Origin: an uncultured Gammaproteobacteria bacterium
Lineage (GTDB): Bacteria > Patescibacteriota > Patescibacteriia > Patescibacteriales > GWC2-42-12
Assembly (NCBI GenBank): GCA_964431805.1
Contig: CAYSKV010000006.1
Coordinates: 1-60,883 of the forward strand
DNA length: 60,883 bases
Reading direction: 5' to 3'
The translations under genes and the position numbers were made by a program. Under the pieces are notes generated by a model. That model did not search any database, was not told where the DNA came from, and saw nothing but the letters and a program-made list of their open reading frames with translations. Positions 979 to 34,423 of the stretch are shown here, piece after piece. Position 1 is the stretch's first letter. Each line of letters starts with the position of its first letter.

Positions 979-1229
979 TATAAAATAAAAACAGAGCTAT
1001 AAGCTCTGTTTTCTAAACTGCGGGCTACTCGGGTTAAGTGCCCCCGGTATGTAATGTTTACAAGGGTTTTTGAAACTAGTTTTGAGGATTGATTTTAGGT
1101 GTTCGGGTCGGGGTCTTATAATAGTAAATGAGACAAATGAGACACTAAAAGGTGGTTTTGGAACTGTCTCATTTATTATCGTTCAATAGATAAATAGACT
1201 AGAATTATTTGATAAAAATTTATTTACTA

Positions 1230-1316: not shown

Positions 1317-1904
1317 ATGTTAAAAGAAACAAAATATCGATGTTGGGGTTATCCGTTTCCAGGCTGTCCGGAATTTCACAAAGTTGTATATGCCATTATC
1401 GGAAATGTTTGCTATTTTTCCGGCACCGAAAGAGGCACAAGCACTATCAATGCGGCTGAAAGTATTATCAAAGAAATTTGTACACAAGAAAATGTGCCTA
1501 TTAAAAATCTTCGTTTTGTTGATATCCAAACTCATCTTGGATATAGAAAACCATCCGGGGTATATATGGTTAATGAATTAACCATCAAACTCAGACCTGG
1601 AACAAAACGAAAAGGCGGAATCGAGCAAATTGAAATTGGCGGTGAGAAGGGCCTTTTGATTACCGGCGACCAAGAAGGATTTGAGGTAACATCGTGGGCA
1701 AAAACACCATTTCCAGTTGATGTTCTCGAACTTTTCCGCCCCTACATTGGCGAGCCTAATGAAAAGGTAGAATGTACAGTTTGCGACTGGGAGGGTATTT
1801 TCTCCGATGGAAAAATTGAATTAAGTAATACTATGTCCAGATGCGCCTGTCCTAAGTGTGGTTTTACTCTGGTTCACTGGCCACAAGGATTCGTGATTCA
1901 ATAA
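1317..1904 (+). CDS. Hypothetical protein with C-terminal CxxC...CxxC zinc ribbon
   Basis: CTVC...CPKC motifs; SD AGGAGGAG; promoter upstream and hairpin terminator at ~1925-1957. Confidence 0.75.
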   Translation: MLKETKYRCWGYPFPGCPEFHKVVYAIIGNVCYFSGTERGTSTINAAESIIKEICTQENVPIKNLRFVDIQTHLGYRKPSGVYMVNELTIKLRPGTKRKGGIEQIEIGGEKGLLITGDQEGFEVTSWAKTPFPVDVLELFRPYIGEPNEKVECTVCDWEGIFSDGKIELSNTMSRCACPKCGFTLVHWPQGFVIQ

Positions 1905-2470
1905 TTCCAAATTTTTGATTTACCAAACCCTGCTTAAGCTATAAGCGGGGTTTTTTATTTACCATTTTAGATAGCGACATATTATTTGGCATTATAATAA
2001 TCACCCAGCCAAAAAGATACCCTTGCCTACCTTTAGATTACGTTAAATTTTTTTTATTCTGAATGGAAAATTTGCATTTTATATAACAAATCATTGACTT
2101 TTTCAGATAAGGTGCTATTATATAAGTAGATACATTAAAAATTAATCAACTGCCTCTCGGGGAGAGATCTGCGAGGGGAAAATACCAGGATTATTAGATG
2201 CTTATTCTATATAAGGGAAACGATTGAAATTTGCAACTAATAGTTAACATGCCGTAACTGGTATTTTGAAACGAAAGTCTGAATTATTGAAATTGCTCAT
2301 CGGCTCTCTTGCTGCCGTTAAACAGCTCGTAGGGCGAAATCAATATTCAGTCGTCTGCGCAGTTTCCAAAATCACTTATTTATTTAAGTGTTTTTGGAAT
2401 TTGCTCAGACAGCAAAATCAAGAACGCTTAAATAGCGTTCTTTTTTATTTATAAATTTAATTACAACAGT

Positions 2471-3805
2471 ATGACAACTAAAAACAAGCTTAATATCGTT
2501 TATGTTCCGATTAACTCCTTACGACCCTCAGAATACAATCCGCGCCAATGGGATAATGAGGCAAAAAAGCAATTAAAACAAAGCCTTAGTCGATTCGGAT
2601 TAATTGATCCGTTGCTGGTTAATTCTGCCAAAGGCCGGGAGGGTGTGGTTATCGGCGGACATTTTCGCCTGGCCATAGCTAAAGAGCTGGGATATACGGA
2701 AGTGCCGGCGGTCTATCTCTGTATTGACGATCTGGAAAAAGAAAAAGAGTTGAATCTCCGACTTAATAAAAATTTGGGAGAATTCGATTGGGCTATGCTG
2801 GCTGGTTTTGGCAATTCCCTACTTTCCGACATCGGATTTTCCAGCGAAGAACTAGATAATGTTTTTGGCATTGACGAAAGCCCGGAAATATTTGATTTGG
2901 CTAAAGAGCTAAAAAAATTAAATATTAATAAGATTGAAATTAAAAAAGGAGATATCTGGCAATTAGGAAATAATCGCTTGATGTGCGGCGACTCGACAGT
3001 TGAGGCTGAGATGCTCAAACTTATGGATGGCGTAAAAGCCGACATGTGCTGTACAGACCCACCCTACCTTTTAGATTATCTTAAGGGGAAAAAGAAAAAT
3101 GGCCAGGCGATCACGGGCTTTGGTTACAAGCGCGATCGGCGGTATTTAGAAACTGACGTGTTGCCACCCAACTTTACCGAAAGCTGGATGGCGAACATCT
3201 CTAAAATCGCTCAGCCTGATTTTTCCATTATCGTTTACGAAAACTGGAAAAATATAAGGACTATTTGGGGTGAAATGGAAAAATATTGGAAAGTAAAAAA
3301 TATGATAGTTTGGCATCTTCCTAATCGAGTCCAGGGATTCGCGGCCAAATATAAATTTTTCAACAAGCACGATATTGCCATGGTCGGACAATCGGGCAAC
3401 ATCAATTTTAACATCAAGCCCGAAGACGAGCTTCTGCAAAATGAATATGAAACCGCGCTTTACGCTACTAGCGGAAAACCGCAGTGGGAATCGTATAAAA
3501 AAGGAAAAAAATATTGTCCGACAGATTTCATTGAGTATAAATCAGCGGATAAAAAGAATTCCGGCCAAGGAGTTGTTTTCGGCACTAAACCTTTGGAAAT
3601 TTTAATTCCTTATATTAAAGTCCTAACAAAACGCGATGCGATTATCGTCGAACCATTCGGTGGAAGCGGATCAACATTAATTGCCGCCCAGAAAATGAAT
3701 CGACGCTGTTTTCTAATGGAAAAATCGCCGATCTATGCCGAGGTAATTAGAAAACGCTGGGAAAATTTAACCAACCTTAAAGCGAAAAAATATGAAGGCA
3801 AATAA
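2471..3805 (+). CDS. ParB/Srx N-terminal domain fused to an N4/N6 DNA methyltransferase
   Basis: LRPSEYNPRQW...VIGGHFRL (ParB-like); DPPY catalytic motif; EPFGGSGSTL SAM-binding motif in beta-class order. Confidence 0.92.
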   Translation: MTTKNKLNIVYVPINSLRPSEYNPRQWDNEAKKQLKQSLSRFGLIDPLLVNSAKGREGVVIGGHFRLAIAKELGYTEVPAVYLCIDDLEKEKELNLRLNKNLGEFDWAMLAGFGNSLLSDIGFSSEELDNVFGIDESPEIFDLAKELKKLNINKIEIKKGDIWQLGNNRLMCGDSTVEAEMLKLMDGVKADMCCTDPPYLLDYLKGKKKNGQAITGFGYKRDRRYLETDVLPPNFTESWMANISKIAQPDFSIIVYENWKNIRTIWGEMEKYWKVKNMIVWHLPNRVQGFAAKYKFFNKHDIAMVGQSGNINFNIKPEDELLQNEYETALYATSGKPQWESYKKGKKYCPTDFIEYKSADKKNSGQGVVFGTKPLEILIPYIKVLTKRDAIIVEPFGGSGSTLIAAQKMNRRCFLMEKSPIYAEVIRKRWENLTNLKAKKYEGK

Positions 3806-4208
3806 AGAAAAGCAAATGCTGCTTGAGCAGTTAAAAAAGACTCCGATTATCCAAATCGCCTGCGAAAAGATTGGTTTAAGCCGAGCTACCTATTATCGTT
3901 GGCGCCAGACTAATTCAAACTTTGCCAAAGCAGCTGACACCGCCATTATTGAAGGTTATTTACTAATTAACGACATGGCTGAATCTCAACTAATTTCAGC
4001 CGTTAGAGATAAAAATTTTTCAGCTATTGTTTATTGGCTTAAGCATCATCATCCGACTTATACTAATCGGCTAGAAATAATTTCCCGACTTCAACAATCG
4101 GAAGAATTAACGCCTGAGCAAACAGCGACAGTGCAAGAAGCTCTGCGCCGATCTTCTCTATTGATTGATCAAAAAGTCACGGATAATAAAAAATATGATA
4201 AAGAATAA
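3792..4208 (+). CDS. HTH protein in terminase-small-subunit position
   Basis: IACEKIGLSRATYYRW HTH followed by helical region; overlaps both neighbours. Confidence 0.75.
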   Translation: MKANKEKQMLLEQLKKTPIIQIACEKIGLSRATYYRWRQTNSNFAKAADTAIIEGYLLINDMAESQLISAVRDKNFSAIVYWLKHHHPTYTNRLEIISRLQQSEELTPEQTATVQEALRRSSLLIDQKVTDNKKYDKE

Positions 4209-5217
4209 ATTATTAACAGATCAAAAATTAATGGACAGAATTGCTCAAGATAAAAAGGTTCGCGCCGCTATCAGTCGAGAAAATCATCTTTGGTTCTTTA
4301 ATATTTATTTCCCTCACTATTCCTTTTATCCTCCGGCCTTGTTCCATCGGGAAATGTTCGAGCTTACGCAGAGAGACGATCTTCGGCTTCTTACCATCAT
4401 GGCTTTCCGCGGTTCAGGCAAATCAACGATTATGAATCTGTCTTATGCGCTATGGTCAGTCTTGGGGAAATTTCAAAAGAAATTTCTAGTTATTGCCAGT
4501 CAAACTCAGAATCAAGCCGAAGGACATTTTTCCAGCATCATTAATGAGTTAAAGAATAATGACCGCTTAAGAGCCGACCTCGGACCCTTCGAGGTCGGCC
4601 AAGATCCTTATTCCGTGCTACTCAAAAATTTCAATGCCAAAATAATGTTCATCTACAATGGGCAAAGTATCCGGGGTATGCGCCATGGTCAGCATAGAAT
4701 AGGTTTGATTATCTTGGACGATATTGAAGACAGCTGGTCAATCCAATTCGAGCGAAACCGAAATGCCACGTATAAATGGTTTGAAACCGAGGTCATGCCG
4801 GCCGGAGATTCTAGCACTACGATTGTAATTCTGGGAAACTTATTAGACGAGGATTCTTTCATTATGCGTATCAGAGAAAATATTAAGAGTGGAAAAATGC
4901 CTGGCATATTTAGAGCCTATCCCTTACTTGATGATTTAGATCAGATTCTCTGGCCGGAAAAATTCACAAAAGAAGACGTTGAACAACTTAAGAAAAGCAT
5001 CGTAGACGAAACAGTTTGGGAAAAAGAATATCTTTTAAAGATTTATAAGGAGATTACCTGTATTGGTGAATTGCTTGATGAGTCCGGACAAAACCCTGCG
5101 GACAAAAAAAACAGCCGAAGCAAAACGGCTGTTCATTTAGGAAAATATGTGATCAGCGCACCGACTATAGAGTTATCAAACAGAGAACTAGCAAGAATAC
5201 TTAGCAAATTCAACTAA
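4165..5217 (+). CDS. Terminase large subunit-like ATPase, without C-terminal nuclease (start possibly 4192)
   Basis: Walker A AFRGSGKST, Walker B IILDDIED, IRGMRH and LGNLL motifs; ORF ends shortly after LWPEK...EYL. Confidence 0.8.
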   Translation: MIKKSRIIKNMIKNKLLTDQKLMDRIAQDKKVRAAISRENHLWFFNIYFPHYSFYPPALFHREMFELTQRDDLRLLTIMAFRGSGKSTIMNLSYALWSVLGKFQKKFLVIASQTQNQAEGHFSSIINELKNNDRLRADLGPFEVGQDPYSVLLKNFNAKIMFIYNGQSIRGMRHGQHRIGLIILDDIEDSWSIQFERNRNATYKWFETEVMPAGDSSTTIVILGNLLDEDSFIMRIRENIKSGKMPGIFRAYPLLDDLDQILWPEKFTKEDVEQLKKSIVDETVWEKEYLLKIYKEITCIGELLDESGQNPADKKNSRSKTAVHLGKYVISAPTIELSNRELARILSKFN

Positions 5218-5315: not shown

Positions 5316-5717
5316 TTATATACTAAATTGAAATTTCCAGATATTAAATTTTATAGGATTAGTTGGCTTATTAAAAATTAATACTGCTGAAATTATTAAA
5401 ATATATAATAACCCCCAAAAGCAATCGAAAAATAACCTTTGTATAATCTCAATCGAATTGTTGCCGTATAGTTGTAGAACATGAACGTTGATTGGCAAAT
5501 AATAGAGAAAGTTGTAAACAAAATATAATAAAATAAAATACAAAATAATTCTTAAATATTTTCCGAATTTATGATTTTTATTATTATAGAAAATATATAA
5601 AGCAGACAAAAGCAAAATACTAAATAAATAAAAAATAAGTAAATTACCTAGAAAAAACAGATAGAGATAAAAAATGAATAGCAGGAAGCAGATTTGAATA
5701 GTTTGTTTTTTTAGCAT
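5316..5717 (-). CDS. Hypothetical membrane protein
   Basis: About four hydrophobic segments. Confidence 0.6.
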   Translation of the reverse strand: MLKKQTIQICFLLFIFYLYLFFLGNLLIFYLFSILLLSALYIFYNNKNHKFGKYLRIILYFILLYFVYNFLYYLPINVHVLQLYGNNSIEIIQRLFFDCFWGLLYILIISAVLIFNKPTNPIKFNIWKFQFSI

Positions 5718-5775: not shown

Positions 5776-6624
5776 TTATTTCCAAAATTTAAATTTCTTG
5801 AAAAAGTTTGTTATTTTCTGAAAAAAGTTGTTTATTTTATTGAAAAAACTTTGATTATTTTTCTGTTGTGGAATGGTAGAGCTTCCATTTATTAAAGTGT
5901 CTTTCTCTGTTTGTATCTCCAGAGATGATGTGGCAATAACTGGGGAGGAGGTAGCGACAATAACAGGTGAAGAAGATGGCACGGTTGTTGAGGCCGTGTT
6001 TTTCATTTCTTCAACTTTGGATTTTATATTAGTCGCACTTACAACTTTTTTAGATTGAATCGCCGAAATAGGTTGCGAAACTTCATCGGCTTCATTTTTA
6101 ATTGCTTCAGAAATTTTATCTAACGCGGACAAATATGATTTTGCTTCTTCGATGCGTAATGAATAACATTCCAAGGTGGGCGAATAAATTCCTAACAATT
6201 TAAGCCGATCATTGTTGTCTTGAACTTCTATTATTGATTGATTTAATGAGTTTAAAGAATTCTTTGTTTTTACAATTTCTGAATTTAAAAGTTCTTTTGT
6301 TGAAATTAATAAACTTGTATCAATTTTTCCGGTGTCAACATAGGCGATAACTACAAAATAGGCTAAATTACTTGCTTGGCTAATTGGACAAGCATTTGAT
6401 TTTTTACATTCATCGGTGTTACTAAAACTAACCAAACTATCTCGCCAGCCGTCATTGCAAATTGCGCTTCCGTCATAATCCGCGCCAGCGTTGCAATTTA
6501 CACCGAGATGATAAGAACACGCGCCGGAAGTGGCATAAACAGTTATTGGAACTATAAATAAAAAAGCTGCTAATAATATTAAATTGTAGCTAAATATTTT
6601 TTCCATAACTTTGTTTGTTTCCAC
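5776..6624 (-). CDS. Secreted protein with Cys-rich N-terminal module, coiled coil and amphipathic C-terminus
   Basis: Signal peptide; SGACSYHLGVNC...ICNDGW; S/T-rich linker; FFNKINNFFQKITNFFKKF tail. Confidence 0.75.
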   Translation of the reverse strand: METNKVMEKIFSYNLILLAAFLFIVPITVYATSGACSYHLGVNCNAGADYDGSAICNDGWRDSLVSFSNTDECKKSNACPISQASNLAYFVVIAYVDTGKIDTSLLISTKELLNSEIVKTKNSLNSLNQSIIEVQDNNDRLKLLGIYSPTLECYSLRIEEAKSYLSALDKISEAIKNEADEVSQPISAIQSKKVVSATNIKSKVEEMKNTASTTVPSSSPVIVATSSPVIATSSLEIQTEKDTLINGSSTIPQQKNNQSFFNKINNFFQKITNFFKKFKFWK

Positions 6625-6808: not shown

Positions 6809-8170
6809 ATGAAACAAGACACCACCACATTGATGCCCCAAACAACAACCTTGAGGCAAAATCGAGGGACCCCGGAGATAATCGGGGTGCCTTCCATTAA
6901 CTATGTCCTTTACGCGAGAAAATCAACCGAATCGGAGGAACGACAAGTCCTTTCCATTGATTCACAAGTTAAGGAGATGCTTCAACTTGCCGAAAGAGAA
7001 AATTTGAATGTAGCCGAGATTAGAAGAGAATCTCATTCAGCTAAGGATACCGGCCAGAGAAAAGTTTTTAATGAAATTGTAAACGATATTCGAAAAGGAT
7101 TATTCAATGGAATCTTAACCTGGGCGCCAGACCGAATCGCCAGGAATGCCGGCGACCTCGGAGCCATAGTGGATTTGATGGACCAAAAACTATTATTAGA
7201 AATTAGAACATATGGACAAAAATTTTCTAATAACCCAAATGAAAAATTTCTGCTCATGATTTTAGGATCACAGGCCAAGCTGGAAAATGATAATCGTGGC
7301 GTTAACGTAAAGCGAGGTCTTCGAGCTAGGGTGGAAATGGGATTCTGGCCGACGCTGGCCCCAATCGGATATATGAATCAGAATCGTATGGATAAAAAAG
7401 GACAGGTTTTACCGGATCCTGTCCGCGCGCCAATTATTAAACAAATATTTGAAAAAGTTGCTTATGAAAAAGCCAGCGGTAGAAAAATATACCACTGGTT
7501 AAGATATGATCTAAATTTCCATACCAGAGGTAATAAGACTCTGAGCTTAAGCGGAATTTTTAGACTCTTAGATAGTACCTTCTATTATGGTACTTTTGAA
7601 TACCCAAAAGATAGCGGCAATTTTTATCAGGGCATACATAAACCGTTGATCACAAAAGAACTGTTTGAAAAAGCGCAAACACAGATAAAGCGAGATCAGA
7701 TAGTTAAGGGCTGTAAAGAATTCGCCTTCACTAAACTTATAACCTGCGGTTTATGTGGCTCCACTATTAGTGGAGAAGAAAAATACAAAACGCTAAAAGA
7801 CGGAACCGCGGTTAAATATGTCTATTACGGTTGTTGCCGGGCCAAAGATAAATGGTGCAAAAATAAATACATCCAGGAAAAGGATTTAATTAATGAACTA
7901 ATAAAAATAATAGATGAAGTTGATTTAAACGAGCTAGGCGTAAAAGCCAAGTTCGAAGATGAAATTGAAAGATTTAATAAATTCCAAGGAGTGCTATTCG
8001 GCAAGGAGAAGTCGGATCTGAAAAAGAAAGAAGTCGATATCCGCACTTACGCTAAATATCTATTAAAAGAAGGGAGTATTGTTGAAAAGCGGGAGTTGCT
8101 GGGTAATTTAAGAAGTAGATTAGTTTATATGGATATGAGTATAAAATTATCAAACGATAAGAGTATATAA
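6809..8170 (+). CDS. Large serine recombinase (resolvase + recombinase + Zn-ribbon domains)
   Basis: YARKSTE catalytic Ser motif, DRIARN, APIGY, CGLCG...YYGC. Confidence 0.95.
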   Translation: MKQDTTTLMPQTTTLRQNRGTPEIIGVPSINYVLYARKSTESEERQVLSIDSQVKEMLQLAERENLNVAEIRRESHSAKDTGQRKVFNEIVNDIRKGLFNGILTWAPDRIARNAGDLGAIVDLMDQKLLLEIRTYGQKFSNNPNEKFLLMILGSQAKLENDNRGVNVKRGLRARVEMGFWPTLAPIGYMNQNRMDKKGQVLPDPVRAPIIKQIFEKVAYEKASGRKIYHWLRYDLNFHTRGNKTLSLSGIFRLLDSTFYYGTFEYPKDSGNFYQGIHKPLITKELFEKAQTQIKRDQIVKGCKEFAFTKLITCGLCGSTISGEEKYKTLKDGTAVKYVYYGCCRAKDKWCKNKYIQEKDLINELIKIIDEVDLNELGVKAKFEDEIERFNKFQGVLFGKEKSDLKKKEVDIRTYAKYLLKEGSIVEKRELLGNLRSRLVYMDMSIKLSNDKSI

Positions 8171-8227
8171 TATTTGGCTAATAATAAACATTTTATATTA
8201 TTTTAACCTATGAAAACCTATGAACAC

Positions 8228-8256
8228 TTGACATTATTTTTAGAGCATGATAGACT
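8228..8256 (+). promoter_or_regulatory. Sigma70 promoter of the R-M/CBASS operon
   Basis: TTGACA-17 nt-TAGACT with TGn extended -10; lies inside the first 20 codons of the track ORF, so the real start is probably ATG 8270. Confidence 0.7.
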
Positions 8257-8269
8257 GATATTAAACTAT

Positions 8270-9955
8270 ATGAGAAAAGACATAAAAGAAAAACTCAAAG
8301 GAATGCCAGAGTTACTCTCCATCGGTCAGGTGGCAGAGATTTTTAGCATTCACCAAGATACTTTAAGAAACTGGGAAAAGGATGGCACCCTTGTCCCCCT
8401 TAGGGTTGGCCCACGTAAGGATCGCAAATATCGCCCACAAGATATTCAAGCCATCGTGGACAAAATGGGCAGTAAACTTACTTTACCTCAGCTTGAAGCT
8501 TTCCTTTGGAAGAGCGCCGATATTCTCCGAGGGAAAATCGACAGCTCTGATTATAAAAAATATATCTTCGGCCTATTATTTTATAAACGAATGAGTGATG
8601 TGTGGGATGAAGAATATGAGTCGGTAATGAAAGAATATAACGACAAGACAATTGCTGGCGCTGATTACAATCACCGCTTTCAAGTTCCAAAAGATTGCAA
8701 ATGGGCAGTTGTTACTGAACAAGCAGAAAGCATCGGTCAAAAGTTAAATGACATTTTTGAAAAGCTTGCTAATGCCAATAGTCCGAAGTTGGACAGAATT
8801 TTTGACGATCTTGATTTCTCAAATAGAGATCGTTTTCCGAACGAAACACTCCAAAGACTCATAAATCACTTTTCTCAATATAATTTTGGTAATACTTACA
8901 TTAGTTCAGACCTCTTAGGTGATGCATACGAATATCTTATCAAACAATTTGCGGCAGACGCAGGGAAAAAAGGCGGAGAATTCTACACGCCTCGTGAAGT
9001 TGAAAAAGTCATTATTGGAATTTTAAAGCCACATCAAAAAGACCATATTTATGATCCAACCGCTGGATCAGGAGGTTTCCTACTTGAGGCATATGACTAT
9101 CTAAAACAAAAATCTGGCGAAAAGATTGCCAAGACGCTTTATCTTTATGGTCAGGAATTAAACATCAGCACTTTTGCTATTGCAAAAATTAATATGTTTT
9201 TGCACGGTCTTGATAGCGCCGATATTCGACGTGGTGACACTATTGCAAATCCTCAATTTTTGACACAAAACGGCAATCTGCAAACATTCGACATCTGCGT
9301 AGCAAATCCGCCCTACTCAATTAAGGATTGGGAATCAGAAATTTTCAGAACAAATAAATATGGACGACTTGAGGGTTACGATATGCCTCCAGAAAAAAAT
9401 GCCGACTATGCTTTTGTTTTACATATCATTAAATCAATGAATGTAAACGGCCGGGCTGGCATCGTGCTTCCTCATGGCGTTCTGACCAGGCCTAACGCTG
9501 AAGCACGAATTCGTGAACAAATACTTAAGAATGATCTAATTGAAGCAGTCATTGCTTTACCACCAAAGCTTTTTTATGGCACAGGCATCCCAGCGGCTAT
9601 TTTAATTTTCAATAAAAACAAGCCTGAAAATAAGAAAAATAAGGTGTTGATTATTGATGCCGAGAAAGATTTTCTTGAGGGTAAAAATCAAAATTCCCTC
9701 CGACCGCAAGATATAAACAAAATCGTAAAAGCATACGATGGTTATTCTGATATTGAAAAATATGCTCGTATTGTTTCACTTAAAGAGATTGAAGATAAGG
9801 GATACAGCTTAAATATCCGTGATTTTATTGACTCATCCGAAGAAGATGAATTGATTGACGTTAAAACTGTAAGAAATGATATTATTTCTCTCAAAAAAGA
9901 TTTGGCGAAATCAGACGCATTGGTCGAGAGATACTTAGATGAACTGAATTATTAA
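8270..9955 (+). CDS. hsdM: Type I R-M methyltransferase with N-terminal MerR/Xis-like HTH (track start 8210)
   Basis: LWKSADILRG, GEFYTP, YDPTAGSGG, ANPPY motifs; N-terminal LSIGQVAEIFSIHQDTLRNWEKDG. Confidence 0.95.
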   Translation: MRKDIKEKLKGMPELLSIGQVAEIFSIHQDTLRNWEKDGTLVPLRVGPRKDRKYRPQDIQAIVDKMGSKLTLPQLEAFLWKSADILRGKIDSSDYKKYIFGLLFYKRMSDVWDEEYESVMKEYNDKTIAGADYNHRFQVPKDCKWAVVTEQAESIGQKLNDIFEKLANANSPKLDRIFDDLDFSNRDRFPNETLQRLINHFSQYNFGNTYISSDLLGDAYEYLIKQFAADAGKKGGEFYTPREVEKVIIGILKPHQKDHIYDPTAGSGGFLLEAYDYLKQKSGEKIAKTLYLYGQELNISTFAIAKINMFLHGLDSADIRRGDTIANPQFLTQNGNLQTFDICVANPPYSIKDWESEIFRTNKYGRLEGYDMPPEKNADYAFVLHIIKSMNVNGRAGIVLPHGVLTRPNAEARIREQILKNDLIEAVIALPPKLFYGTGIPAAILIFNKNKPENKKNKVLIIDAEKDFLEGKNQNSLRPQDINKIVKAYDGYSDIEKYARIVSLKEIEDKGYSLNIRDFIDSSEEDELIDVKTVRNDIISLKKDLAKSDALVERYLDELNY

Positions 9956-9959
9956 AATT

Positions 9960-10832
9960 ATGAGTGTATCAACTAAATTTCAAAATTTTTGTTCAAACAT
10001 CCGCATAACAGCAAGTGTTGCTGGTGATATCTCTTATCGCTACAAAAGAATCACCAAACAACTTAACAAAGATTTTTGGGATACTGAATCAGATACATCA
10101 CATAGTTTATATGTTGGATCTTATGGCCGCGATACAGATATCCATGTTAGCGATATAGATGTATTATTTCAGTTACCATACTCTGTTTATGAAAGAATAA
10201 ATGGTCATTCGGGGAATGGTCAGTCAGCACTTCTTGCTGAAGTTCGAGACTCTTTAAGAAATACCTATAGCACCACTCATATAAGTAGTGATGGGCAGAT
10301 TATTGGAATTAAATTTGACGACGGCGTGAATTTTGAAATTTTACCTTGTTTTATAAATAAAGATGGAAGCTACACTTATCCAGATTCTAATAATGGTGGG
10401 AGTTGGAAAACTACAAATCCAAAACCTGAAATTGAGGAAATAAAAAAGACAAATGACTTATGTAATGGAAATTTAAAAAATCTTTGTAGAATGGCAAGGG
10501 CGTGGAAAGATAAATGGGATGTCCCCATGGGCGGCTTGCTAATTGATACATTAGCCTATCAATTTATAAAACAATGGGCTCACAGAAATGAATCATATTT
10601 ATATTATGATTATATGACTCGCGACTTTTTTGAATACTTAAAAAATCAGGACGAAAATAAAACCTATTGGTTAGCGGTTGGTAGCGGTCAATATGTTTAT
10701 AAAAAAGGCGATTTCCAATACAAGGCCTTACGTGGATTTAATATCTCAGAAGAAGCTATTGATTATGAGCAAAGGGAAATGCCAGCTTCGGCCAATGGCA
10801 AGTGGAGAGAAATTTATGGGACTAAATTTTAA
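9960..10832 (+). CDS. SMODS/cGAS-DncV-like nucleotidyltransferase (CD-NTase)
   Basis: VGSYGRDT...SDIDVLF nucleotidyltransferase motif, third acidic residue in FEILP, GGSWKTTNPK. Confidence 0.9.
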   Translation: MSVSTKFQNFCSNIRITASVAGDISYRYKRITKQLNKDFWDTESDTSHSLYVGSYGRDTDIHVSDIDVLFQLPYSVYERINGHSGNGQSALLAEVRDSLRNTYSTTHISSDGQIIGIKFDDGVNFEILPCFINKDGSYTYPDSNNGGSWKTTNPKPEIEEIKKTNDLCNGNLKNLCRMARAWKDKWDVPMGGLLIDTLAYQFIKQWAHRNESYLYYDYMTRDFFEYLKNQDENKTYWLAVGSGQYVYKKGDFQYKALRGFNISEEAIDYEQREMPASANGKWREIYGTKF

Positions 10833-10836
10833 TTAT

Positions 10837-11409
10837 ATGGACATAAAAAACCTTTCAATTATCAGACAGTCATTTGCAAGTACAGTTTTTACACATAAAG
10901 TCCAAGAGGTTGCATCTGAAAACCAAGAAAAAAATGTATTTATTATTAAAATAATAAATATAATACTAGTTTCGATTGTTCTTATTTTATTAATTATTCA
11001 GGCCGCAAATCCAAATAATTTAATTTTTTCTTTTATCGGTGCTGGTATTACAGCTGCTGAGATTATATTTTTGATTATTCAGCTTTCTTTTAATTTTGAA
11101 CAGAAAGTGATAATGCACAAAAACTCGGCATTAAAATATATGGGTTTACGAGACGCTTACAGATCTCTTATTACTGATGTTATGAATGAAGCTATCCAGA
11201 CGAGTGAGATTGTTAGTCGAAGAGATTTATTGCAACGAGAATATCAAATAATTTCTGATTTAGCGCCCCAGACAGGAAATAAAGAATATGCAGAAGCACA
11301 AAAAAGATTAAATAAACGCGGAGTAGTCTCTGGAGAAGATTTTACATGGTCCGACGAAGAAATAGATTGGTTTTTACCAGAAAATTTAAGGCTAAAAAGA
11401 CCACAGTAG
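10837..11409 (+). CDS. SLATT-family 2-TM effector (true start 10837; track start 10678 overlaps upstream gene)
   Basis: FTHKVQE, two TM helices, HKNSALKY..LRDAY, C-terminal LP..LR; directly follows the CD-NTase. Confidence 0.85.
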   Translation: MDIKNLSIIRQSFASTVFTHKVQEVASENQEKNVFIIKIINIILVSIVLILLIIQAANPNNLIFSFIGAGITAAEIIFLIIQLSFNFEQKVIMHKNSALKYMGLRDAYRSLITDVMNEAIQTSEIVSRRDLLQREYQIISDLAPQTGNKEYAEAQKRLNKRGVVSGEDFTWSDEEIDWFLPENLRLKRPQ

Positions 11410-11418
11410 TCCATTACT

Positions 11419-12549
11419 ATGAAAGTTAATTTATTACAAAATATTCCAAAAGATTGGGACATAAAGAAAATTAAAGATGTTCTCGACTTTGAGCAACCAA
11501 CAAAATATATAGTTGAAAGCTCAAGTTATACTCCTACTGGTGAAACAGCTGTTCTGACAGCTAATAAATCTTTTATTTTGGGTTATACAAACGAAACTGA
11601 GGGTGTATATACAGACACACCTGTAATTATTTTCGATGATTTTACTACTGACAGTAAATATGTTGATTTTCCTTTTAAAGTTAAGTCTTCGGCAATTAAA
11701 ATATTAAAAACAAAAAATACTGAAACTGAACTCAAATTTATCTATGAGTTAATGAAATTAATGAATTTTCAAATCGCAAATCATAAACGTCATTATATTT
11801 CGCAATACCAAGAACTATCTATTGTTGTTCCTCCTATTAAAGAACAGAAAAAGATTGCGGGTATCTTGTCGTCTATTGATGAGGAAATTAATATTATTGA
11901 AAATATTATAAATACGGACGAAAAATTAAAAACTGGTTTAATGCAGTCTTTGTTCGAGGGTAATTGGCCTTATAAAAAAATAAATGAAATAGCAACTGTT
12001 TTGACTGGAGGGACGCCAAGAACGTCAACAAAAGAATTTTGGAATGGATCAATTAATTGGATGTCTTCTGGTGAGGTTAATTTGCGAAGAGTTAAGAATA
12101 CAGAAAAGAAAATTACTCAAAAAGGACTCGAGGGATCCAATGCAACCATTTTACCAATAGGAACCGTTATGGTTGCTTTGGCTGGACAAGGTAAGACACG
12201 TGGGAAAGTGGCAATATTAGAAATAGAGACAACGTGCAATCAATCATTAGCCGGGATTATTACCGATAAAGAATCAGTTTTTAACGAATTTTTATTTTAT
12301 AACCTCGAAAATCGCTATCAGGAACTGAGAAATATTAGCGGTGGAGAGGGTCGTACAGGTTTAAATTTAAAGCTAATTAAAAACTTTAAAATACCAGTAC
12401 CACCCCTAAATTTACAAAAGAAAATTGCCACCGCTCTTGCTTCTATTGATGAAAGAATTACAAAAAATTTACTCTTAAAAGAAAATTTTTTAAGACTTAA
12501 GAAGGGATTAGTGTCGGATCTTTTGAGCGGAAAAGTCAGAACAAAATAA
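11419..12549 (+). CDS. hsdS: Type I R-M specificity subunit
   Basis: Two TRDs with VPPIKEQKKIA / VPPLNLQKKIA conserved regions and KKGLVSDLLSG terminus. Confidence 0.95.
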   Translation: MKVNLLQNIPKDWDIKKIKDVLDFEQPTKYIVESSSYTPTGETAVLTANKSFILGYTNETEGVYTDTPVIIFDDFTTDSKYVDFPFKVKSSAIKILKTKNTETELKFIYELMKLMNFQIANHKRHYISQYQELSIVVPPIKEQKKIAGILSSIDEEINIIENIINTDEKLKTGLMQSLFEGNWPYKKINEIATVLTGGTPRTSTKEFWNGSINWMSSGEVNLRRVKNTEKKITQKGLEGSNATILPIGTVMVALAGQGKTRGKVAILEIETTCNQSLAGIITDKESVFNEFLFYNLENRYQELRNISGGEGRTGLNLKLIKNFKIPVPPLNLQKKIATALASIDERITKNLLLKENFLRLKKGLVSDLLSGKVRTK

Positions 12550-12553
12550 TAAT

Positions 12554-15466
12554 ATGAAATTTAACGAACAATACACAATTGAATATCACATCATAAAATT
12601 CATACGAGAAAAACTCGGCTATGAATATATTCCTGCGGAAGAATTTTCTAAACTCCGTTCTTTTGAAACTGAGTATATTATCACTTCTCATCTTTTGGAA
12701 GCGGTAAAGAAAATTAACAATATTGACGATGCTGTAGCACAAAGCGTTGTGAGAGAAGTTAAAAAATCAGATACAAACGAAGCATCTCTACTCGCGATGC
12801 GAAATGGTATCAATTTGAAAGATCCAAATACTGGTAACTTCCGCGATTATAAGATTGTTGATTTTGATAATCCTGAAAATAATCATTTTGTCGTTACTAA
12901 TCAATTCTATTTTGAGGGAGCAACTGAAAACATCCGCCCTGATGTGATGATTTTCCTTAATGGCTTGCCGGTTTGTGATATAGAAGCTAAAAGTCCTACC
13001 GCTTCAAGTAGTGTCAGTTTTGAAAACGCCATTGATCAGTTAAAGAGATACGAGAAAGTCGCACCAAAGCTTTTCTTGCCTAACTGCCTTAATATCGCCA
13101 CCGATGGCCTTAAAACAGTCTACGGAGCAACTTATTCCCCAAAGCAGTACTTCCTTGCGTGGCGTGAAGATCCACAAGTGGAAAAGAAAACTTTTGAAGA
13201 CGAGCTTGATTCAACACTTTTCTTTTTACTTGATCAAAAGCAGATTCTTGACCTCATTAAAAACTTTATTGTTTTTGAAAAAAAGAAAGACGGAGTCACT
13301 AAGAAAATTACCAGATACCAACAATTTTACGCGGCCAATAAAATCGTGGCTCGCGTTCAAGATGGCGAGAGAAAGAAAGGTTTGATTTGGCATACTCAAG
13401 GATCTGGTAAGACTCTTACTATGTTTTTCACAGCTTGGAAACTTCGCTATAATCCCGAACTAAAAAATCCTAAGGTATTTATTTTGATTGATCGTATTGA
13501 TCTTGATGATCAAGTGTACGAAGAATTTGAAAGCTGGGGCGGACAAAATCTTGTAAGAGTTGAATCGCGCAAAGACCTTGAAAAGAAAATTAAAGGAGCT
13601 GATAGAGGTATCTTTATCTCAACTATTCAAAAATTCAGCGAGTTGGAAGAGATAGAAAATATTGATGGTAACGTTATTGTTCTTTCTGACGAAGCTCACC
13701 GAGACAATGAAGGTATATCAGCGATAAAGATGCGCAATGCTTTTAAAGATGCTTTCTTTTTCGGATTCACTGGAACGCCAATTGATAAATTAACGCTGAA
13801 TACTCATAGAAACTTTGGCGAAGAGGGTGAACGATATCTTGATTACTATTCAATCCAGCAAGCCATTGATGATGGCGCTACTTTACCAGTTACATACGAG
13901 GCTCGTCTTTCTAAATTCTTTATTGATGAGGAAAAAGTTGATCAGCAATTTAATGAACTCACTGTTGATTTGAATGACAAGCAAAAAGAACTGCTTACTA
14001 AAAAATACGGAAAGAAAGAGGCTCTTGTTAAATTGGATAAAAGAATGGAAGCGGTTGCTCAAGATATTATTGAGCACTACAAGCTTTATGTCTTACCAAA
14101 CGGATTCAAGGCACAGGTTGTTTGTTATGACCGCGAGGCTACGGCTAAATATAAACAGCTTTTTGATAAGCTGGTTCCAGCTGAATGGTCTGAGGTTGTC
14201 TATTCTCCTGGCGATCCAAATAGTGAAAGCGATGATCTTAAAAAATACAATACAAATAAACAGAAGCGAGAAAAAATTATTGAGCAGTTCAAAGATCCAA
14301 ATCATCCGCTTAAATTCTTACTTGTGTGCGACATGCTTTTGACTGGTTTTGATGCACCAGTTGAACAAGTAATGTATTTGGATAAACCGCTTCGCGATCA
14401 TAACCTACTTCAAGCAATCGCCCGTACAAACCGAGTATTCCCAAATAAAGGATGTGGAAAGATTATTGATTACTATGGTGTAACTAAAAATCTCTACGAC
14501 GCTCTTAATTTTGACGAGAGTGTAGTTGATAGTGCCATGGTAGATATCAACCGTCTTAAAGAAGAGTTCTCAAAAGTTATTGGCGAAATAATGGAATTAT
14601 TTGTCGGGGTTAATATCGAAGATCCATCAATAGATAACCTACGCCGATGTTTGAAGATATTTATTGAAAACCAGAGCAAACAGCAATACTTCAAGGATAA
14701 ATACAGCCGACTAAAGATGTTGTTTGAGATTCTTTCACCCGATCCATTCCTGATGGAATATCTACGCAAATTTGAGTGGATTACTAGTTTTTATTTGGCA
14801 TTCGTAAAAGAATTCCAAATTGACGACATAGACGCTTTTTCACTTGCTGAATATGGAGAGAAAATAAAGAGCTTGATTCAGCAGAAGATTGACTACGAGG
14901 GCATCACCAAAAACTTCCGAGAATTAAATATTCACGACTTAGCTACTTTAAACAAACTTGATAAACTTCCCGAAGAAGAGAAGGCTCTTAACCTTGAAAA
15001 AATGTTGAAGCGTGAGATTTCAATTAATATTGATACTCATCCGGCATTCAAGAAATTCAGCGAGCGACTTATCGCTATTCGTGTTGAATTTGAAAAGCAC
15101 CAGATTGATTTAGCAGAAAGAATAAAGCGCTACTATGAACTTCTAAACGATATAAAGACAAAGACCGAAGAAGCTAAAGAATTGGGCTACACTCTCCGCG
15201 AATACGGCCTATTTGTAATCTCTGATGAATTTATCAGCGAATCTGATAAGGATATTGTTAAGGAATTCGTAAAAGAAATGGCCGCACGACTTGAAGATGT
15301 TCTCGATGAAAACTGGCAAGATTCATCCAAGAGAGAAGAATTTTTGAAAGAAGCAAAACGAACTCTGCAAGAATTAATCCTCAAAGACTATAAGGATAAA
15401 ATAAAGGTTTCTGATTTCCACAAATATTTAAATAGATTGGTGGATGTGGTAATTAAGCGATTTTAA
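12554..15466 (+). CDS. hsdR: Type I R-M restriction subunit
   Basis: RPDV...IEAKS nuclease motif, HTQGSGKT, DEAHR, GFTGTP, MLLTGFDAP, QAIARTNR. Confidence 0.97.
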   Translation: MKFNEQYTIEYHIIKFIREKLGYEYIPAEEFSKLRSFETEYIITSHLLEAVKKINNIDDAVAQSVVREVKKSDTNEASLLAMRNGINLKDPNTGNFRDYKIVDFDNPENNHFVVTNQFYFEGATENIRPDVMIFLNGLPVCDIEAKSPTASSSVSFENAIDQLKRYEKVAPKLFLPNCLNIATDGLKTVYGATYSPKQYFLAWREDPQVEKKTFEDELDSTLFFLLDQKQILDLIKNFIVFEKKKDGVTKKITRYQQFYAANKIVARVQDGERKKGLIWHTQGSGKTLTMFFTAWKLRYNPELKNPKVFILIDRIDLDDQVYEEFESWGGQNLVRVESRKDLEKKIKGADRGIFISTIQKFSELEEIENIDGNVIVLSDEAHRDNEGISAIKMRNAFKDAFFFGFTGTPIDKLTLNTHRNFGEEGERYLDYYSIQQAIDDGATLPVTYEARLSKFFIDEEKVDQQFNELTVDLNDKQKELLTKKYGKKEALVKLDKRMEAVAQDIIEHYKLYVLPNGFKAQVVCYDREATAKYKQLFDKLVPAEWSEVVYSPGDPNSESDDLKKYNTNKQKREKIIEQFKDPNHPLKFLLVCDMLLTGFDAPVEQVMYLDKPLRDHNLLQAIARTNRVFPNKGCGKIIDYYGVTKNLYDALNFDESVVDSAMVDINRLKEEFSKVIGEIMELFVGVNIEDPSIDNLRRCLKIFIENQSKQQYFKDKYSRLKMLFEILSPDPFLMEYLRKFEWITSFYLAFVKEFQIDDIDAFSLAEYGEKIKSLIQQKIDYEGITKNFRELNIHDLATLNKLDKLPEEEKALNLEKMLKREISINIDTHPAFKKFSERLIAIRVEFEKHQIDLAERIKRYYELLNDIKTKTEEAKELGYTLREYGLFVISDEFISESDKDIVKEFVKEMAARLEDVLDENWQDSSKREEFLKEAKRTLQELILKDYKDKIKVSDFHKYLNRLVDVVIKRF

Positions 15467-15468
15467 TT

Positions 15469-16035
15469 ATGAAAAGAAAAATCGAGCTACATAAAAAGAA
15501 AGTCGAATACACCCTAAAGGTGAGCAAGCGAGCTCGAAGAATGAGACTGGCTATCTATTGCGATGGCAACTTTGTGGTCACCGCGCCGCGAAATATGAGT
15601 GAGAATATTGTTGAACAATTCATAATCAGAAAATCGCAGTGGATACTTGATAAATTAGAATATTTTAAAAGCATCTCTGGACGGATATTTTTAAGAGGTA
15701 CTAAAAAAGATTATAAGGAATACAAAGACCGAGCCCTTGATTTAGTACAAAAACGGATTGAGTATTTTAATAAAACTTACAGTTTTAGATTTAATAAGAT
15801 AAATATTAAAAATCAAAAAACTCGCTGGGGAAGTTGTTCAAAAAAAGGAAATCTCAATTTTAACTACAAAATTGCCATGCTACCTGAAAAATTAGCTGAT
15901 TATATTATTGCTCATGAGCTTTGCCATTTAAAAGAATTTAATCATTCACAAAAGTTTTGGAATTTGGTCGCAAAAATGATGCCAGACTATCAAAATTTAA
16001 AAAATGAGTTAAAAAAGGGAGGACTAAAATATTAA
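15469..16035 (+). CDS. YgjP/DUF45 (SprT-like, M48) zinc metallopeptidase
   Basis: RWGSCS and HELCH (HExxH); typical position after hsdR. Confidence 0.9.
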   Translation: MKRKIELHKKKVEYTLKVSKRARRMRLAIYCDGNFVVTAPRNMSENIVEQFIIRKSQWILDKLEYFKSISGRIFLRGTKKDYKEYKDRALDLVQKRIEYFNKTYSFRFNKINIKNQKTRWGSCSKKGNLNFNYKIAMLPEKLADYIIAHELCHLKEFNHSQKFWNLVAKMMPDYQNLKNELKKGGLKY

Positions 16036-16169
16036 TAATTTACTATGCGGCGCAGAGATTTATATTTTGATAAAAAATAATATTGAAAATTAAGATTTAT
16101 ATTATAAATCAAACATAAAAGCCCCGTGAAAACGGGGCTTTCGGGTCTGCCGATAATAAGTTTTAGATG

Positions 16170-16243
16170 CGGGACGGACGGGACTCGGACCCGCGACCTC
16201 TGCCGTGACAGGGCAGCGCTCTAACCAACTGAGCTACCGTCCC
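16170..16243 (-). tRNA. tRNA-Asp(GTC)
   Basis: Cloverleaf; anticodon arm ctgcc-ctGTCac-ggcag; T-loop reads TCCGAGT. Confidence 0.95.
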
Positions 16244-34157: not shown

Positions 34158-34423
34158 TAACCTAATGAAAAGTATTAGTTTGTTTGTTGATAGTCTGTTA
34201 AAAATTTTATACAAAAAAATTTCATCCACAGTCAGCTTATTTATTCCACTTTTTTTTCAACAACAACCCCACAATTATAAAACCAACAAAACAACAAACC
34301 CTAGCCAAGACCAAACAAAAAATTAACTTATCAACCCACTTATTATTATTACTATTTATAAATTATATAAATACTAATTAATTAATAAACACCCAAATCT
34401 GTTAATAACTTATAAAATATATT
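34158..34423. other. Probable oriC
   Basis: AT-rich dnaA-dnaN spacer with DnaA-box-like 9-mers (TTATACAAA 34207, TCATCCACA 34222); plus strand looks C-rich before and G-rich after (by eye only). Confidence 0.6.

Follow-up and report, generated by a model that had tools for sequence, protein, structure and literature searches.

A capsid-less island family of Patescibacteria with a TerS-like protein, a co-varying repeat block and, in one lineage, a nuclease-free terminase-derived ATPase

Phage satellites bring terminase subunits of their own: PICIs supply the small subunit (TerS) and cfPICIs supply TerS plus the large subunit (TerL), and PICI-type elements are expected to hijack the packaging of their helper and to interfere with it (PMC10085698). 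Beside a full-length TerL, cfPICIs encode capsid, portal, protease and head-tail connectors. PICMI and tycheposon-like elements are very small, consisting of an integrase, a regulator and a TerS-like gene, with the rest drawn from other elements. Among phages, phi29-type packaging motors work without nuclease activity (PMC13595956). The TerL-family ASCE ATPases phi29 gp16 and asccphi28 gp11 are ~330-370 aa long; gp16 retains, as a vestige, a C-terminal domain of nuclease fold in contact with the portal and pRNA, and packages unit-length, protein-primed genomes. Lastly, there are phage regions in which a ParB-methyltransferase, TerS and TerL (PHROG 498, 4044 and 38) precede the portal and head genes. 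The Patescibacteria (CPR) make up a large fraction of bacterial diversity, and very little is known of their mobile elements or of their interactions with phages.

Here we compare these systems with a locus on contig CAYSKV010000006.1 (assembly GCA_964431805.1; Patescibacteriota, GWC2-42-12). The window, meaning the whole stretch of DNA that was analysed, comprises positions 1-60,883 of the forward strand. Three overlapping ORFs at 2471-5217 encode a ParB-methyltransferase, a TerS-like HTH protein and an ATPase-only TerL (Table 1). The first two overlap by 14 nt and the last two by 44 or 14 nt, according to which TerL start is used; the ATG, which gives the form held in the protein database, is the likely one. 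An earlier note on this DNA had recognised the gene order of a phage packaging region, and PHROG matches support such a module. The methyltransferase matches phrog_498 over its full length (7e-79) and carries the Pfam domains ParB_N (PF02195, 5e-10) and N6_N4_Mtase (PF01555, 3e-18), the HTH protein matches the small terminase family phrog_4044 (3e-8), and the TerL matches phrog_38 at 8e-36 across profile positions 266-519 of 760 only. Families, order and overlaps are thus those of the phage regions. However, where phages continue from TerL into portal and head genes, the islands described here continue into a serine recombinase or cargo. The absence of any other phage structural gene from the window was also borne out: proteins of related real phages were matched only by TerL and the ParB domain, and PHROG scans of ten large ORFs outside the island gave no structural match (their matches include dnaA, dnaN and RNR).

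Table 1. Features of the island and its right-hand boundary in the window.
Position	Strand	Feature	Basis or remark
1009..1204	+	conserved ~190-nt non-coding block, candidate pac-like site	covariance model, 160.5 bits
1128-1135, 1137-1144		two direct 8-mers ATGAGACA	within upstream block
1165-1172		inverted copy of the 8-mer	makes a terminator-like hairpin with the direct copies
1317..1904	+	195-aa protein with C-terminal zinc ribbon; island accessory gene	no Pfam/PHROG family match
2471..3805	+	ParB_N-domain / N6-N4 DNA methyltransferase fusion, 444 aa	DPPY motif; Pfam, PHROG
3792..4208	+	TerS-like HTH DNA-binding protein, 138 aa, recognition helix SRATYYRWR	phrog_4044, 3e-8
4195..5217 (alternative TTG start 4165)	+	TerL-derived ATPase without nuclease domain, 340 aa (350 aa from TTG)	profile, model, HMM
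5316-5717	-	133-aa multi-pass membrane protein	convergent cargo
5776-6624	-	282-aa secreted or anchored protein	convergent cargo
6809..8170	+	large serine recombinase (Resolvase + Recombinase + Zn_ribbon_recom)	presumed island integrase
8210-9955	+	HsdM, type I R-M	N-terminal MerR/HTH_17 excisionase-like domain
9960-10832	+	SMODS	nested pair with SLATT_4
10678-11409	+	SLATT_4	nested pair with SMODS
11419-12549	+	HsdS
12554-15466	+	HsdR
15469-16035	+	YgjP-like peptidase
16169..16243	-	tRNA-Asp	first clearly chromosomal feature rightward

The cassette sits, as had been proposed, in a recombinase island, with a serine recombinase and, from 8210 to 16035, defence cargo; in related islands, too, R-M genes of a comparable kind come after the recombinase. 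Between the TerL stop and the start of the convergent gene lie 99 nt, and the two convergent cargo genes are not conserved from island to island. The zinc-ribbon ORF is missing from the closest related island (L008), in which the two non-coding blocks that flank it adjoin. The non-coding block is the probable left edge of the island, and the right end lies between 16035 and ~16169, no sharper. We found no meaningful direct or inverted repeats flanking the island, no partial copy of the upstream block at its right end and no terminal repeats on any island contig. Four wastewater runs holding the locus yielded no excision or circle junctions at a flat depth of about 6-7x; contig breaks at 2463-2469, 8080, 11013 and the tRNA were considered as signals of excision or amplification and proved to be uninformative strain or graph branches. 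No replication module was recognised, there being no primase or helicase domain in the island ORFs of the window or in the conserved neighbour clusters. No regulator was identified in the window; many relatives have a LexA/S24 repressor or XRE.

With PICI/SaPI-type satellites the locus shares small size, an integrase, its own TerS-like gene, the lack of capsid and tail genes, defence cargo and, in many relatives, a repressor. It encodes its own terS and no other structural or lysis gene. It differs from PICIs in that the integrase is a large serine recombinase rather than a tyrosine recombinase, in the hosts being Patescibacteria, and in encoding a ParB-methyltransferase and a TerL-derived ATPase as well, the latter an atypical addition; moreover, neither a primase-replicase nor a gene for capsid-size redirection was found. 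Possession of both TerS and TerL recalls the cfPICIs (PMC10085698). However, none of the capsid, portal, protease and connector genes of cfPICIs is present here, and the TerL, unlike theirs, is not full-length. PICMI and tycheposon-like elements lack a TerL-derived motor, differ in integrase and host, and are not reported to carry a conserved repeat block that co-evolves with the TerS-like protein.

The locus is one of many. We confirmed by tblastn at least 362 relatives in species-representative genomes, nearly all of them Patescibacteria, with 655 clusters (50% identity) at E<=1e-30. When stretches of +/-10 kb were examined at 88 loci, synteny was found for the methyltransferase in 82, the HTH protein in 69, TerL in 82 and the large serine recombinase, downstream of TerL, in 55. 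Hundreds of Patescibacteria genomes have a layout that is alike whether TerL is nuclease-free or full-length: ParB-methyltransferase, TerS-like protein, TerL, serine recombinase and then R-M or defence genes. Represented among the latter are type I and type III R-M, SMODS+SLATT, AbiU2-HEPN and OLD. Portal, capsid and protease genes were absent from the window and from about 100 related island loci. Moreover, IMG/VR contigs whose TerL is 35-46% identical have the same capsid-less layout, whereas TerLs at <=34% identity belong to real phages, with genes for portal (6e-122), protease and major capsid protein after them; the nearest of these phages has a TerL of 34% identity (38% over a partial match). 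These data show that small integrative islands peculiar to Patescibacteria share the three genes as a conserved core; this core never occurs with portal, capsid or tail genes, and a serine recombinase and variable defence cargo usually follow it. Since full-length TerLs of the same family occupy the same capsid-less islands, what is unusual is the family of islands as a whole, beyond the truncation on which the earlier note had focused. The family is abundant and carries much of the R-M and other defence cargo of CPR bacteria, and its members are currently mis-scored as "viral" because of their TerL. A full-text literature search returned no account of such islands or of a TerL clade devoid of nuclease, and in PADLOC-DB v2 the TerL-like, HTH and recombinase proteins matched nothing, while the methyltransferase matched generic MTase models only.

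That the TerL of the window is ATPase-only, with no nuclease continuation, is agreed upon by the end of its profile match, an AlphaFold model and a six-frame search. The model (pLDDT 89, pTM 0.86) contains no nuclease domain, and a Foldseek search with it returned TerL ATPase domains at 2e-8 to 1e-5 (PhiV-1 8dgc_E at 2e-8, T4 gp17 2o0j and P74-26 4znk). A nuclease-domain HMM found nothing in a six-frame search of the window, where the best E was 2.3 as against 5e-94 for the positive control, and PF17289 was not found in the protein. The ORF, which includes the motifs FRGSGKST and LIILDDIE, is free of stop codons and frameshifts; since nothing that resembles a nuclease comes after it in any frame, a recoded stop or gene-calling artefact is improbable. 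After the ATPase core comes a disordered linker (residues ~300-319, counted from TTG 4165) and then a folded C-terminal element, GKYVISAP plus a helix, at pLDDT ~93. We considered whether this GKYxISAP element is a remnant of nuclease strand 3, since MAFFT aligned it with KIYILPNP; however, the profile-profile probability was 0.1%, and the idea was dropped. The phi29-type structures 7jq6 and 5hd9 are also among the fold matches. In sequence the closest relatives are T7/Terminase_6-like and not phi29-like, sequence and fold together point to T7/T4/P74-26-type TerLs as the nearest relatives, and in comparison with gp16 the nuclease fold is gone, replaced by the linker and a ~30-residue element of no detectable homology, in an island context. 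The existence of phi29-type ATPases that work without nuclease activity (PMC13595956) also means that the earlier statement that TerL needs both ATPase and nuclease domains was too strong.

The same truncation recurs. All of the nearest homologues (41-70% identity) are short, 330-420 aa, and form one clade: the 41 short homologues (328-392 aa) include every closest match, 79 long homologues carry PF17289, and in the tree the most recent common ancestor of 43 short forms subtends 45 tips, all short. The three-gene cassette with this truncation is present in 13 of 14 distinct short-form loci. Residues K86/S87/T88, D185/D186/E188 and R82/R170/R178 are invariant in the short forms, Walker A and B and the catalytic Glu being retained at identities down to 41%, and the clade has in common a new C-terminal motif, [YF]xIS[AV]P. 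Comparison with a relative of 69% identity gives an overall dN/dS of 0.10, and one of ~0.08 for the ATPase core. The window TerL therefore belongs to an old monophyletic sub-lineage that has lost the whole nuclease domain, gained a short C-terminal element and kept every ATP-hydrolysis motif under purifying selection; far from having decayed, the gene of the "truncated" protein is an ancient variant without nuclease that selection has maintained. Within the scope of the searchable literature it is the first whole TerL clade found to have lost its nuclease under strong selection, and it offers a natural experiment on the separable parts of a packaging motor. A LexA-type repressor is encoded at none of 14 short-form loci, compared with an upstream LexA/S24 repressor at 22 of 69 long-form loci (p = 0.016), and no recombinase is nearby in 4 of the 12 short-form loci with enough sequence, one of which lies among plain metabolic genes.

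The TerS-like protein matches TerS PHROGs through its HTH, as do 56/56 family members; with the family profile no relative of solved structure was found. Upstream of the cassette, the three 8-mers of the non-coding block are the sole copies in the window, and the block recurs in about 30 other loci, always upstream of the cassette and co-oriented with it. In 30 of 30 loci, without exception, the core of the repeat co-varies with one residue of the HTH recognition helix: GAGACA with A (20/20), GTTACA with M (4/4), GGGACA with S/T (4/4) and GTGACA with W/N (2/2), an association (Fisher p = 3e-8) with at least 7 independent switches. The covariation shows, at the level of sequence, that the TerS-like protein reads the 8-bp repeats, and makes the block its candidate recognition (pac-like) site. 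The implied code, which pairs a single helix residue with one or two repeat bases, is concrete and testable, and could be used to find pac-like sites and to predict which islands can be mobilised together. The block matched no Rfam family in the window or in 18 independent contigs, and RNAalifold supported only its terminal hairpin. A view of the block as a cassette-specific part proved only partly true, most metagenome copies having no cassette within reach: of 40 copies with at least 4 kb of downstream sequence, the cassette follows in only 6. Blocks also occur in tandem arrays, separated by 1-2 kb of variable genes. Given these arrays and the great excess of blocks over cassettes, the main role of the block may be a different one.

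That the ATP-hydrolysis residues are strictly conserved, along with a cognate DNA site, speaks for a TerL that works as an active ATPase directed to a site, and disfavours a dominant-negative decoy of the passive kind. The earlier suggestion of a satellite or a decoy stands as regards the module and its recombinase island and is weakened as regards the passive decoy, and the choice between satellite and decoy cannot be made by sequence. We tentatively favour, at somewhat less than an even chance, a satellite-like island that feeds its DNA into the capsids of a helper phage. The serine recombinase would integrate and excise the island, and the TerS-like protein would mark its DNA at the repeat block. 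The TerL-derived motor would then drive that DNA, in a direction fixed by the block, into procapsids of a helper (none was identified for the island), and the methyltransferase may pre-methylate it against restriction in the next host. Because the short lineage has no nuclease, the DNA end would have to be made in trans. Candidates for this step are the TerL of the helper itself, an island TerL of full length and the methyltransferase through its ParB-type domain. Loss of the nuclease domain also removes the region of portal docking in many TerLs (PMC13595956). Such an island, by diverting or occupying the packaging machinery of its helper, would also interfere with the phage. On the other hand, the missing helper, replication module, excision junctions and terminal repeats, the distance to the nearest real-phage TerL, the loss of the portal-docking region, the wide occurrence of blocks apart from the cassette and the R-I-G of the window TerL beside Walker B all count against the satellite reading, and the 4 short-form loci devoid of a recombinase fit a function retained by the host better than a mobile element of this kind. 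Satellites would point to CPR helper phages that await discovery; otherwise, exaptation has given a terminase a role outside viruses.

Of the other readings, a terminase-derived machine that works independently of capsids is unlikely, though it carries some weight. It could be a DNA pump for cell-to-cell transfer, in which the repeat block would be the transfer locus, much as in the TraB/clt system of Streptomyces, or an R-M-like module (M + S-like + R-like). Hundreds of loci yielded neither structural genes nor a helper, the island TerL clade has long been separated from phage TerLs, the HTH protein reads an 8-bp site by covariation, orphan blocks and tandem arrays suggest sites acted on in trans, and the tightly overlapping methyltransferase, HTH and ATPase genes resemble an R-M operon. 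However, the islands conserve neither a membrane pore nor a coupling component, the best matches of all three proteins are phage packaging-region families and nothing in PADLOC corresponds. A role in restriction, moreover, fails for the nuclease-free clade unless another nuclease substitutes, and we know of no precedent for a machine of this sort. In a specific form, which we regard as doubtful, the methyltransferase, TerS-like reader, TerL-derived ATPase and co-evolving block would constitute a capsid-independent DNA-mobilisation system unique to CPR bacteria, with the blocks acting like oriT/clt or attC. Orphan blocks and tandem arrays would then mark DNA segments for a cassette elsewhere in the genome, in trans, and the nuclease-free TerL would have left its phage role behind to serve as a dedicated translocase.

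Rather improbable is a defence function in which the nuclease-free TerL poisons the terminase of an invading phage, through mixed rings that do not cut or by occupying its portal or TerS. Defence genes abound in the islands, interference at the terminase step is known from satellites, the trio is kept at the short-form loci without a recombinase, and the absence of a LexA-type inducible repressor from short-form islands is as expected if induction is no longer needed. However, the full-length sister lineage has the same context, so that context alone does not imply a decoy. A passive decoy has no need of the catalytic Glu, Arg finger and Walker A/B, all of which are invariant here down to 41% identity, nor of its own TerS-like partner with a co-evolving cognate site. 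Mixed rings are moreover unlikely because of the low identity to any real-phage TerL found (<=34%, or 38% over the partial match), and PADLOC holds no matching model.

Simple decay of a prophage to a TerL pseudogene fragment, to which split or frameshifted TerLs (L020, L037, L044 and L060), methyltransferases split in two relatives (L008 and L009) and the unusual R-I-G beside Walker B in the window TerL (R-P-D in >90% of the family) might point, is very improbable and effectively refuted: the earlier note had tied it to full-length close homologues in intact prophages and a unique truncation, whereas the homologues are short and monophyletic, with conserved length and the shared C-terminal motif at 41-70% identity, dN/dS is about 0.1 in the absence of stops, frameshifts or a nuclease remnant, the split TerLs are unrelated to the short clade, and the capsid-less gene order recurs in hundreds of genomes.

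The split TerLs, which are sporadic in the family, were also considered as intermediates on the way to the short clade and were rejected because they (L020, L044 and others) group with unrelated long forms. Separately, two extended variants of about 420-530 aa (P0123 and P0141), to which no Pfam domain has been added, differ only in their longer acidic tails.

Three overlapping ORFs in the same direction make up the cassette at 2471-5217 of the window: a ParB-methyltransferase, a TerS-like helix-turn-helix (HTH) protein and a TerL-derived ATPase. The match of the last to phrog_38, a large-terminase family, is limited to profile positions 266-519 of 760, and its database form starts at ATG 4195. 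An AlphaFold2 model built with 38 homologues was confident (pLDDT 89.1, pTM 0.86) and contains no nuclease domain; its top PDB matches were all TerL ATPase domains, those of PhiV-1 TerL (8dgc_E, 1.9e-8), T4 gp17 (N-domain, 2o0j), P74-26 (4znk) and T7 (4bij). An HMM of the nuclease domain from full-length relatives found no remnant when all of the window was read in six frames (lowest E 2.3, compared with 5e-94 on a control locus), and a convergent membrane-protein gene starts 99 nt past the TerL stop codon. The window itself is bacterial chromosome, carrying 11 tRNAs, the 16S 3′ end, dnaA and dnaN. None of the ten large ORFs compared with PHROGs matched a structural gene, and window ORFs showed no resemblance to proteins of related real phages except in TerL and the ParB domain. 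The earlier note had described an overlapping trio with an ATPase-only TerL, no nuclease continuation and no other phage structural gene, and the ORFs, phrog_38 span, model and searches all bear this description out.

Features of the window in and around the island
Feature	Position	Strand	Evidence
Non-coding repeat block	1009-1204		71-87% nucleotide identity in distant islands
Unusually long non-coding stretch 5′ of the methyltransferase gene	1905-2470		no significant Rfam match
Second segment conserved with related locus L008	2144-2210		84% over 67 nt
ParB N-terminal domain fused to N6/N4 DNA methyltransferase, 444 aa	2471-3805	+	PF02195 5e-10, PF01555 3e-18, phrog_498 7e-79 full-length
HTH protein, 138 aa	3792-4208	+	best family matches are small-terminase PHROGs
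TerL-like protein, 350/340 aa	4165/4195-5217	+	phrog_38 8e-36
Large serine recombinase	6809-8170	+	downstream of cassette
MerR/HTH_17 (excisionase-type) domain fused to HsdM N-terminus	8210-9955		residues 35-84
SMODS nucleotidyltransferase and overlapping SLATT_4 two-TM effector	9960-11409		1e-51 and 1e-30
dnaA and dnaN	32811-35575

A truncation unique to this locus, with close full-length homologues in intact prophages, is not what we found. By length, the best 120 homologues split into a short group (41 proteins, 328-392 aa) and a long one (79 proteins, 460-574 aa), and the closest relatives (70% to ~45% identity) were all short. The long TerLs carry PF17289 (Terminase_6C), including its catalytic motifs GVDLA and HDDLADA. 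In a neighbour-joining tree of 196 sequences, built on the ATPase domain common to both groups, the most recent common ancestor of all 43 short forms subtends 45 tips, the remaining two of which are also short, and under midpoint rooting this clade is as deep as the entire long clade. Walker A (FRGSGKST) is retained in the short forms, as are the three invariant arginines and Walker B, including its catalytic Glu (LIIxDDxE). Beyond the ATPase core the short forms alone carry a charged, variable linker of 25-50 residues that the model leaves disordered, followed by a conserved [LF]GxYxIS[AV]P element modelled as beta strands and a helix (pLDDT ~93) and a variable, often acidic tail without homology to the nuclease domain in profile-profile comparison. 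Against a 69%-identical relative dN/dS was 0.10 overall, ~0.08 in the core and ~0.33 in the tail, values that are approximate because dS (1.9) is near saturation. A search of 1.84 billion representative proteins returned 655 family clusters at E<=1e-30, with matches through the short-form tail in ~25 of the top 150 representatives. Taken together, these comparisons indicate an old truncation that selection has maintained, and not a decaying gene. A few TerLs of the family are split or frameshifted; they were considered as kin of the short forms and rejected, as they group with unrelated long forms.

The TerL family holds other departures from the canonical form. Just before Walker B (residues 179-180 counted from TTG 4165; window 4696-4701) the window copy reads R-I-G. 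At this place R-P-D stands in >90% of family members of either length, and the closest relatives of the window copy have R-P-D or R-P-S; the substitution may weaken activity. Eight loci (L039, L055, L058, L064, L075, L079, L089 and L090) carry tandem full-length TerL paralogues, copy 2 often lacking canonical Walker A and copy 1 often lacking nuclease motif 2; subfunctionalisation or a heteromeric terminase may explain this. TerL relatives P0125, P0129, P0132, P0133, P0135, P0154 and P0178 (~690-760 aa) have ~200 extra C-terminal residues, resembling in P0125 a second terminase-nuclease-like domain.

Gene contexts were gathered for the short homologues, 80 species-representative genomes and 80 IMG/VR contigs, with ORFs called and neighbours clustered. 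The 362 confirmed relatives in species-representative genomes were nearly all from Patescibacteria MAGs. Long and short TerL loci have a single recurrent gene order in common: an optional LexA-like S24 repressor, usually divergent; one small variable gene; the ParB-methyltransferase (82/88 loci); an optional second methyltransferase (~257 aa); the HTH protein (~145 aa, 69 loci); TerL; an optional XRE protein and secreted DUF4352 protein; a large serine recombinase (~445 aa, 55 loci, often immediately 3′ of TerL); and variable cargo, mostly type I and type III restriction-modification (R-M) alongside genes such as AbiU2-HEPN and those of the OLD family. Among the clustered neighbours, no cluster resembled portal, capsid or tail genes. 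Every IMG/VR contig whose TerL is 35-46% identical has this island layout, whereas those at <=34% are real phages, with portal (phrog_2662, 6e-122), head protease (phrog_80) and major capsid protein (phrog_1328) genes directly after TerL. This division indicates that the island TerLs are a lineage of their own, long separated from phage TerLs. The oddity is thus the capsid-less island as such, and the window holds its nuclease-free variant. Fourteen IMG/VR contigs listed as viral genomes (L088-L101) are such islands, without capsid genes, rather than phages; the TerL marker presumably led to their viral classification.

The earlier note proposed a search for the same cassette with the same truncation in CPR genomes. 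Among 14 distinct short-form loci, a small sample, 13 have the intact trio, the exception (L005) having no adjacent methyltransferase. A serine recombinase follows in 8 of the 12 with enough sequence and was not found within 5-10 kb at the other four. It is the direct neighbour of TerL in L168 and L293, and the statement that cargo always lies between TerL and recombinase in short-form islands is therefore withdrawn. The LexA-like repressor occurs at 0/14 short-form versus 22/69 long-form loci (Fisher p = 0.016; small samples). In L295 a recombinase-less trio sits amid ordinary metabolic genes. Its TerS-like protein (9616-10026) has Pro in place of the conserved recognition-helix Arg (SPAT), and a search of the surrounding 10 kb found no repeat block; this may be an immobilised copy that has lost DNA recognition.

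The ~190-nt repeat block contains ATGAGACA twice directly and once inverted, forming a terminator-like hairpin. Profile and covariance-model searches located it at ~30 TerL loci, always upstream and on the cassette strand, 0.1-9 kb away; no Rfam family matches it. The three 8-mers switch jointly between species (GAGACA, GTTACA, GGGACA or GTGACA), the inverted copy matching, and the class predicts the recognition-helix residue after the conserved Arg/Lys at the helix start (SR-A-TYYRWR in the window): GAGACA with Ala (20/20 loci), GTTACA with Met (4/4), GGGACA with Ser/Thr (4/4) and GTGACA with Trp/Asn (2/2). Ten of these loci were looked at only after the rule was set, and Fisher's test of Ala against GAGACA gave p = 3e-8. 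Minority classes are dispersed on the HTH tree, which points to at least seven independent switches. This covariation suggests that the TerS-like protein binds the 8-bp repeats. Given also the match of 56/56 family members to TerS PHROGs, the block is a candidate pac-like site and probably marks where the island in the window begins on its left. In a scan of metagenome contigs the block far outnumbered the cassette. Methyltransferase, HTH and TerL genes lie downstream in 6/40 metagenome instances with at least 4 kb of downstream sequence, several blocks are followed by a serine recombinase alone, and none of the instances scanned has the cassette upstream. Some G-to-A differences are tolerated as G.U pairs, compatible with RNA-level constraint. 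Candidate primary roles for the block are those of a pac-like site, of an integration hotspot or boundary element, and of a small RNA. In L233 (528-4887, four copies), L185, L250, L207, L240, L260, L229, L057 and L043 it is arrayed in tandem, with 2-4 copies in the same orientation at intervals of ~1-2 kb and small variable genes in the gaps; for many copies a terminase cassette is not within reach, and the layout recalls a cassette array.

What might such islands do? The element would belong among integrative islands that resemble phage satellites. Known PICI satellites supply TerS, and cfPICI supply TerS and TerL along with capsid genes (PMC10085698); the present islands fit neither definition. 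In the literature covered, which is incomplete, we found no account of Patescibacteria islands that combine TerL with a serine recombinase, of CPR satellites or of a TerL clade lacking the nuclease, and a preprint regards the extension of satellites to phages of CPR bacteria as unknown (10.1101/2025.02.15.638363). The new elements are the nuclease-free TerL clade, the capsid-less TerS, TerL and serine-recombinase architecture, and the repeat-helix recognition code suggested by covariation.

We tentatively favour, at slightly less than even confidence, a satellite-like island that would load its own DNA into helper-phage capsids. This reading builds on a phage-derived packaging-region module without virion genes, an integrase, defence cargo, often an SOS-type repressor, an ATPase with conserved catalytic residues and a cognate DNA site. 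The serine recombinase would integrate and excise the island, the TerS-like protein would mark its DNA at the repeat block, the TerL-derived motor would load the marked DNA in a fixed direction into helper-phage capsids, and the methyltransferase would guard it in the next host. Islands of the nuclease-free lineage would need another source of DNA cleavage, possibly the helper's TerL, a full-length island TerL or the ParB-type domain. Nuclease-free packaging is mechanistically possible, since phi29-type motors do so; the nuclease region serves portal docking in many TerLs (PMC13595956). Its loss here speaks against the satellite reading, as do some trios without a nearby recombinase and several negative results: no helper phage or replication module was seen for the islands, no excision junctions or depth increase in four wastewater metagenome runs, and no terminal repeats on island contigs. 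A capsid-independent machine, serving transfer or a restriction-like function, is a less probable alternative. Conservation of the catalytic residues and the presence of a cognate site count against decoy or interference defence, which the earlier note had set beside a satellite, and we consider it unlikely. Decay is highly improbable for so deep and constrained a clade, and part of the probability falls to none of these four readings.

The window's cargo comprises a type I R-M system, a SMODS and SLATT_4 pair nested between hsdM and hsdS, and a YgjP peptidase. The pair corresponds by its domains to a minimal CBASS-like pair; contig variants from the source metagenomes branch at 11013, and strains without this insertion may exist. 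The gene directly after the serine recombinase carries a MerR/HTH_17 domain, which in nine related loci (cluster c10) is a free 64-aa protein (e.g. L005, 13540-13734) or a similar fusion, and its product is a possible recombination directionality factor. Assembly contigs from the four wastewater runs with this locus fork into three different continuations precisely ahead of the start codon of the methyltransferase gene (2463-2469), and fork again close to where the recombinase gene ends (8080), which suggests co-existing strains with modules swapped at these points. A terminator-like element also lies immediately 5′ of the methyltransferase start codon, in the long non-coding stretch. Lastly, dnaA, dnaN and a cumulative GC skew minimum at ~32-34 kb place the origin of chromosome replication inside the window, at a distance of ~17-30 kb from the island.
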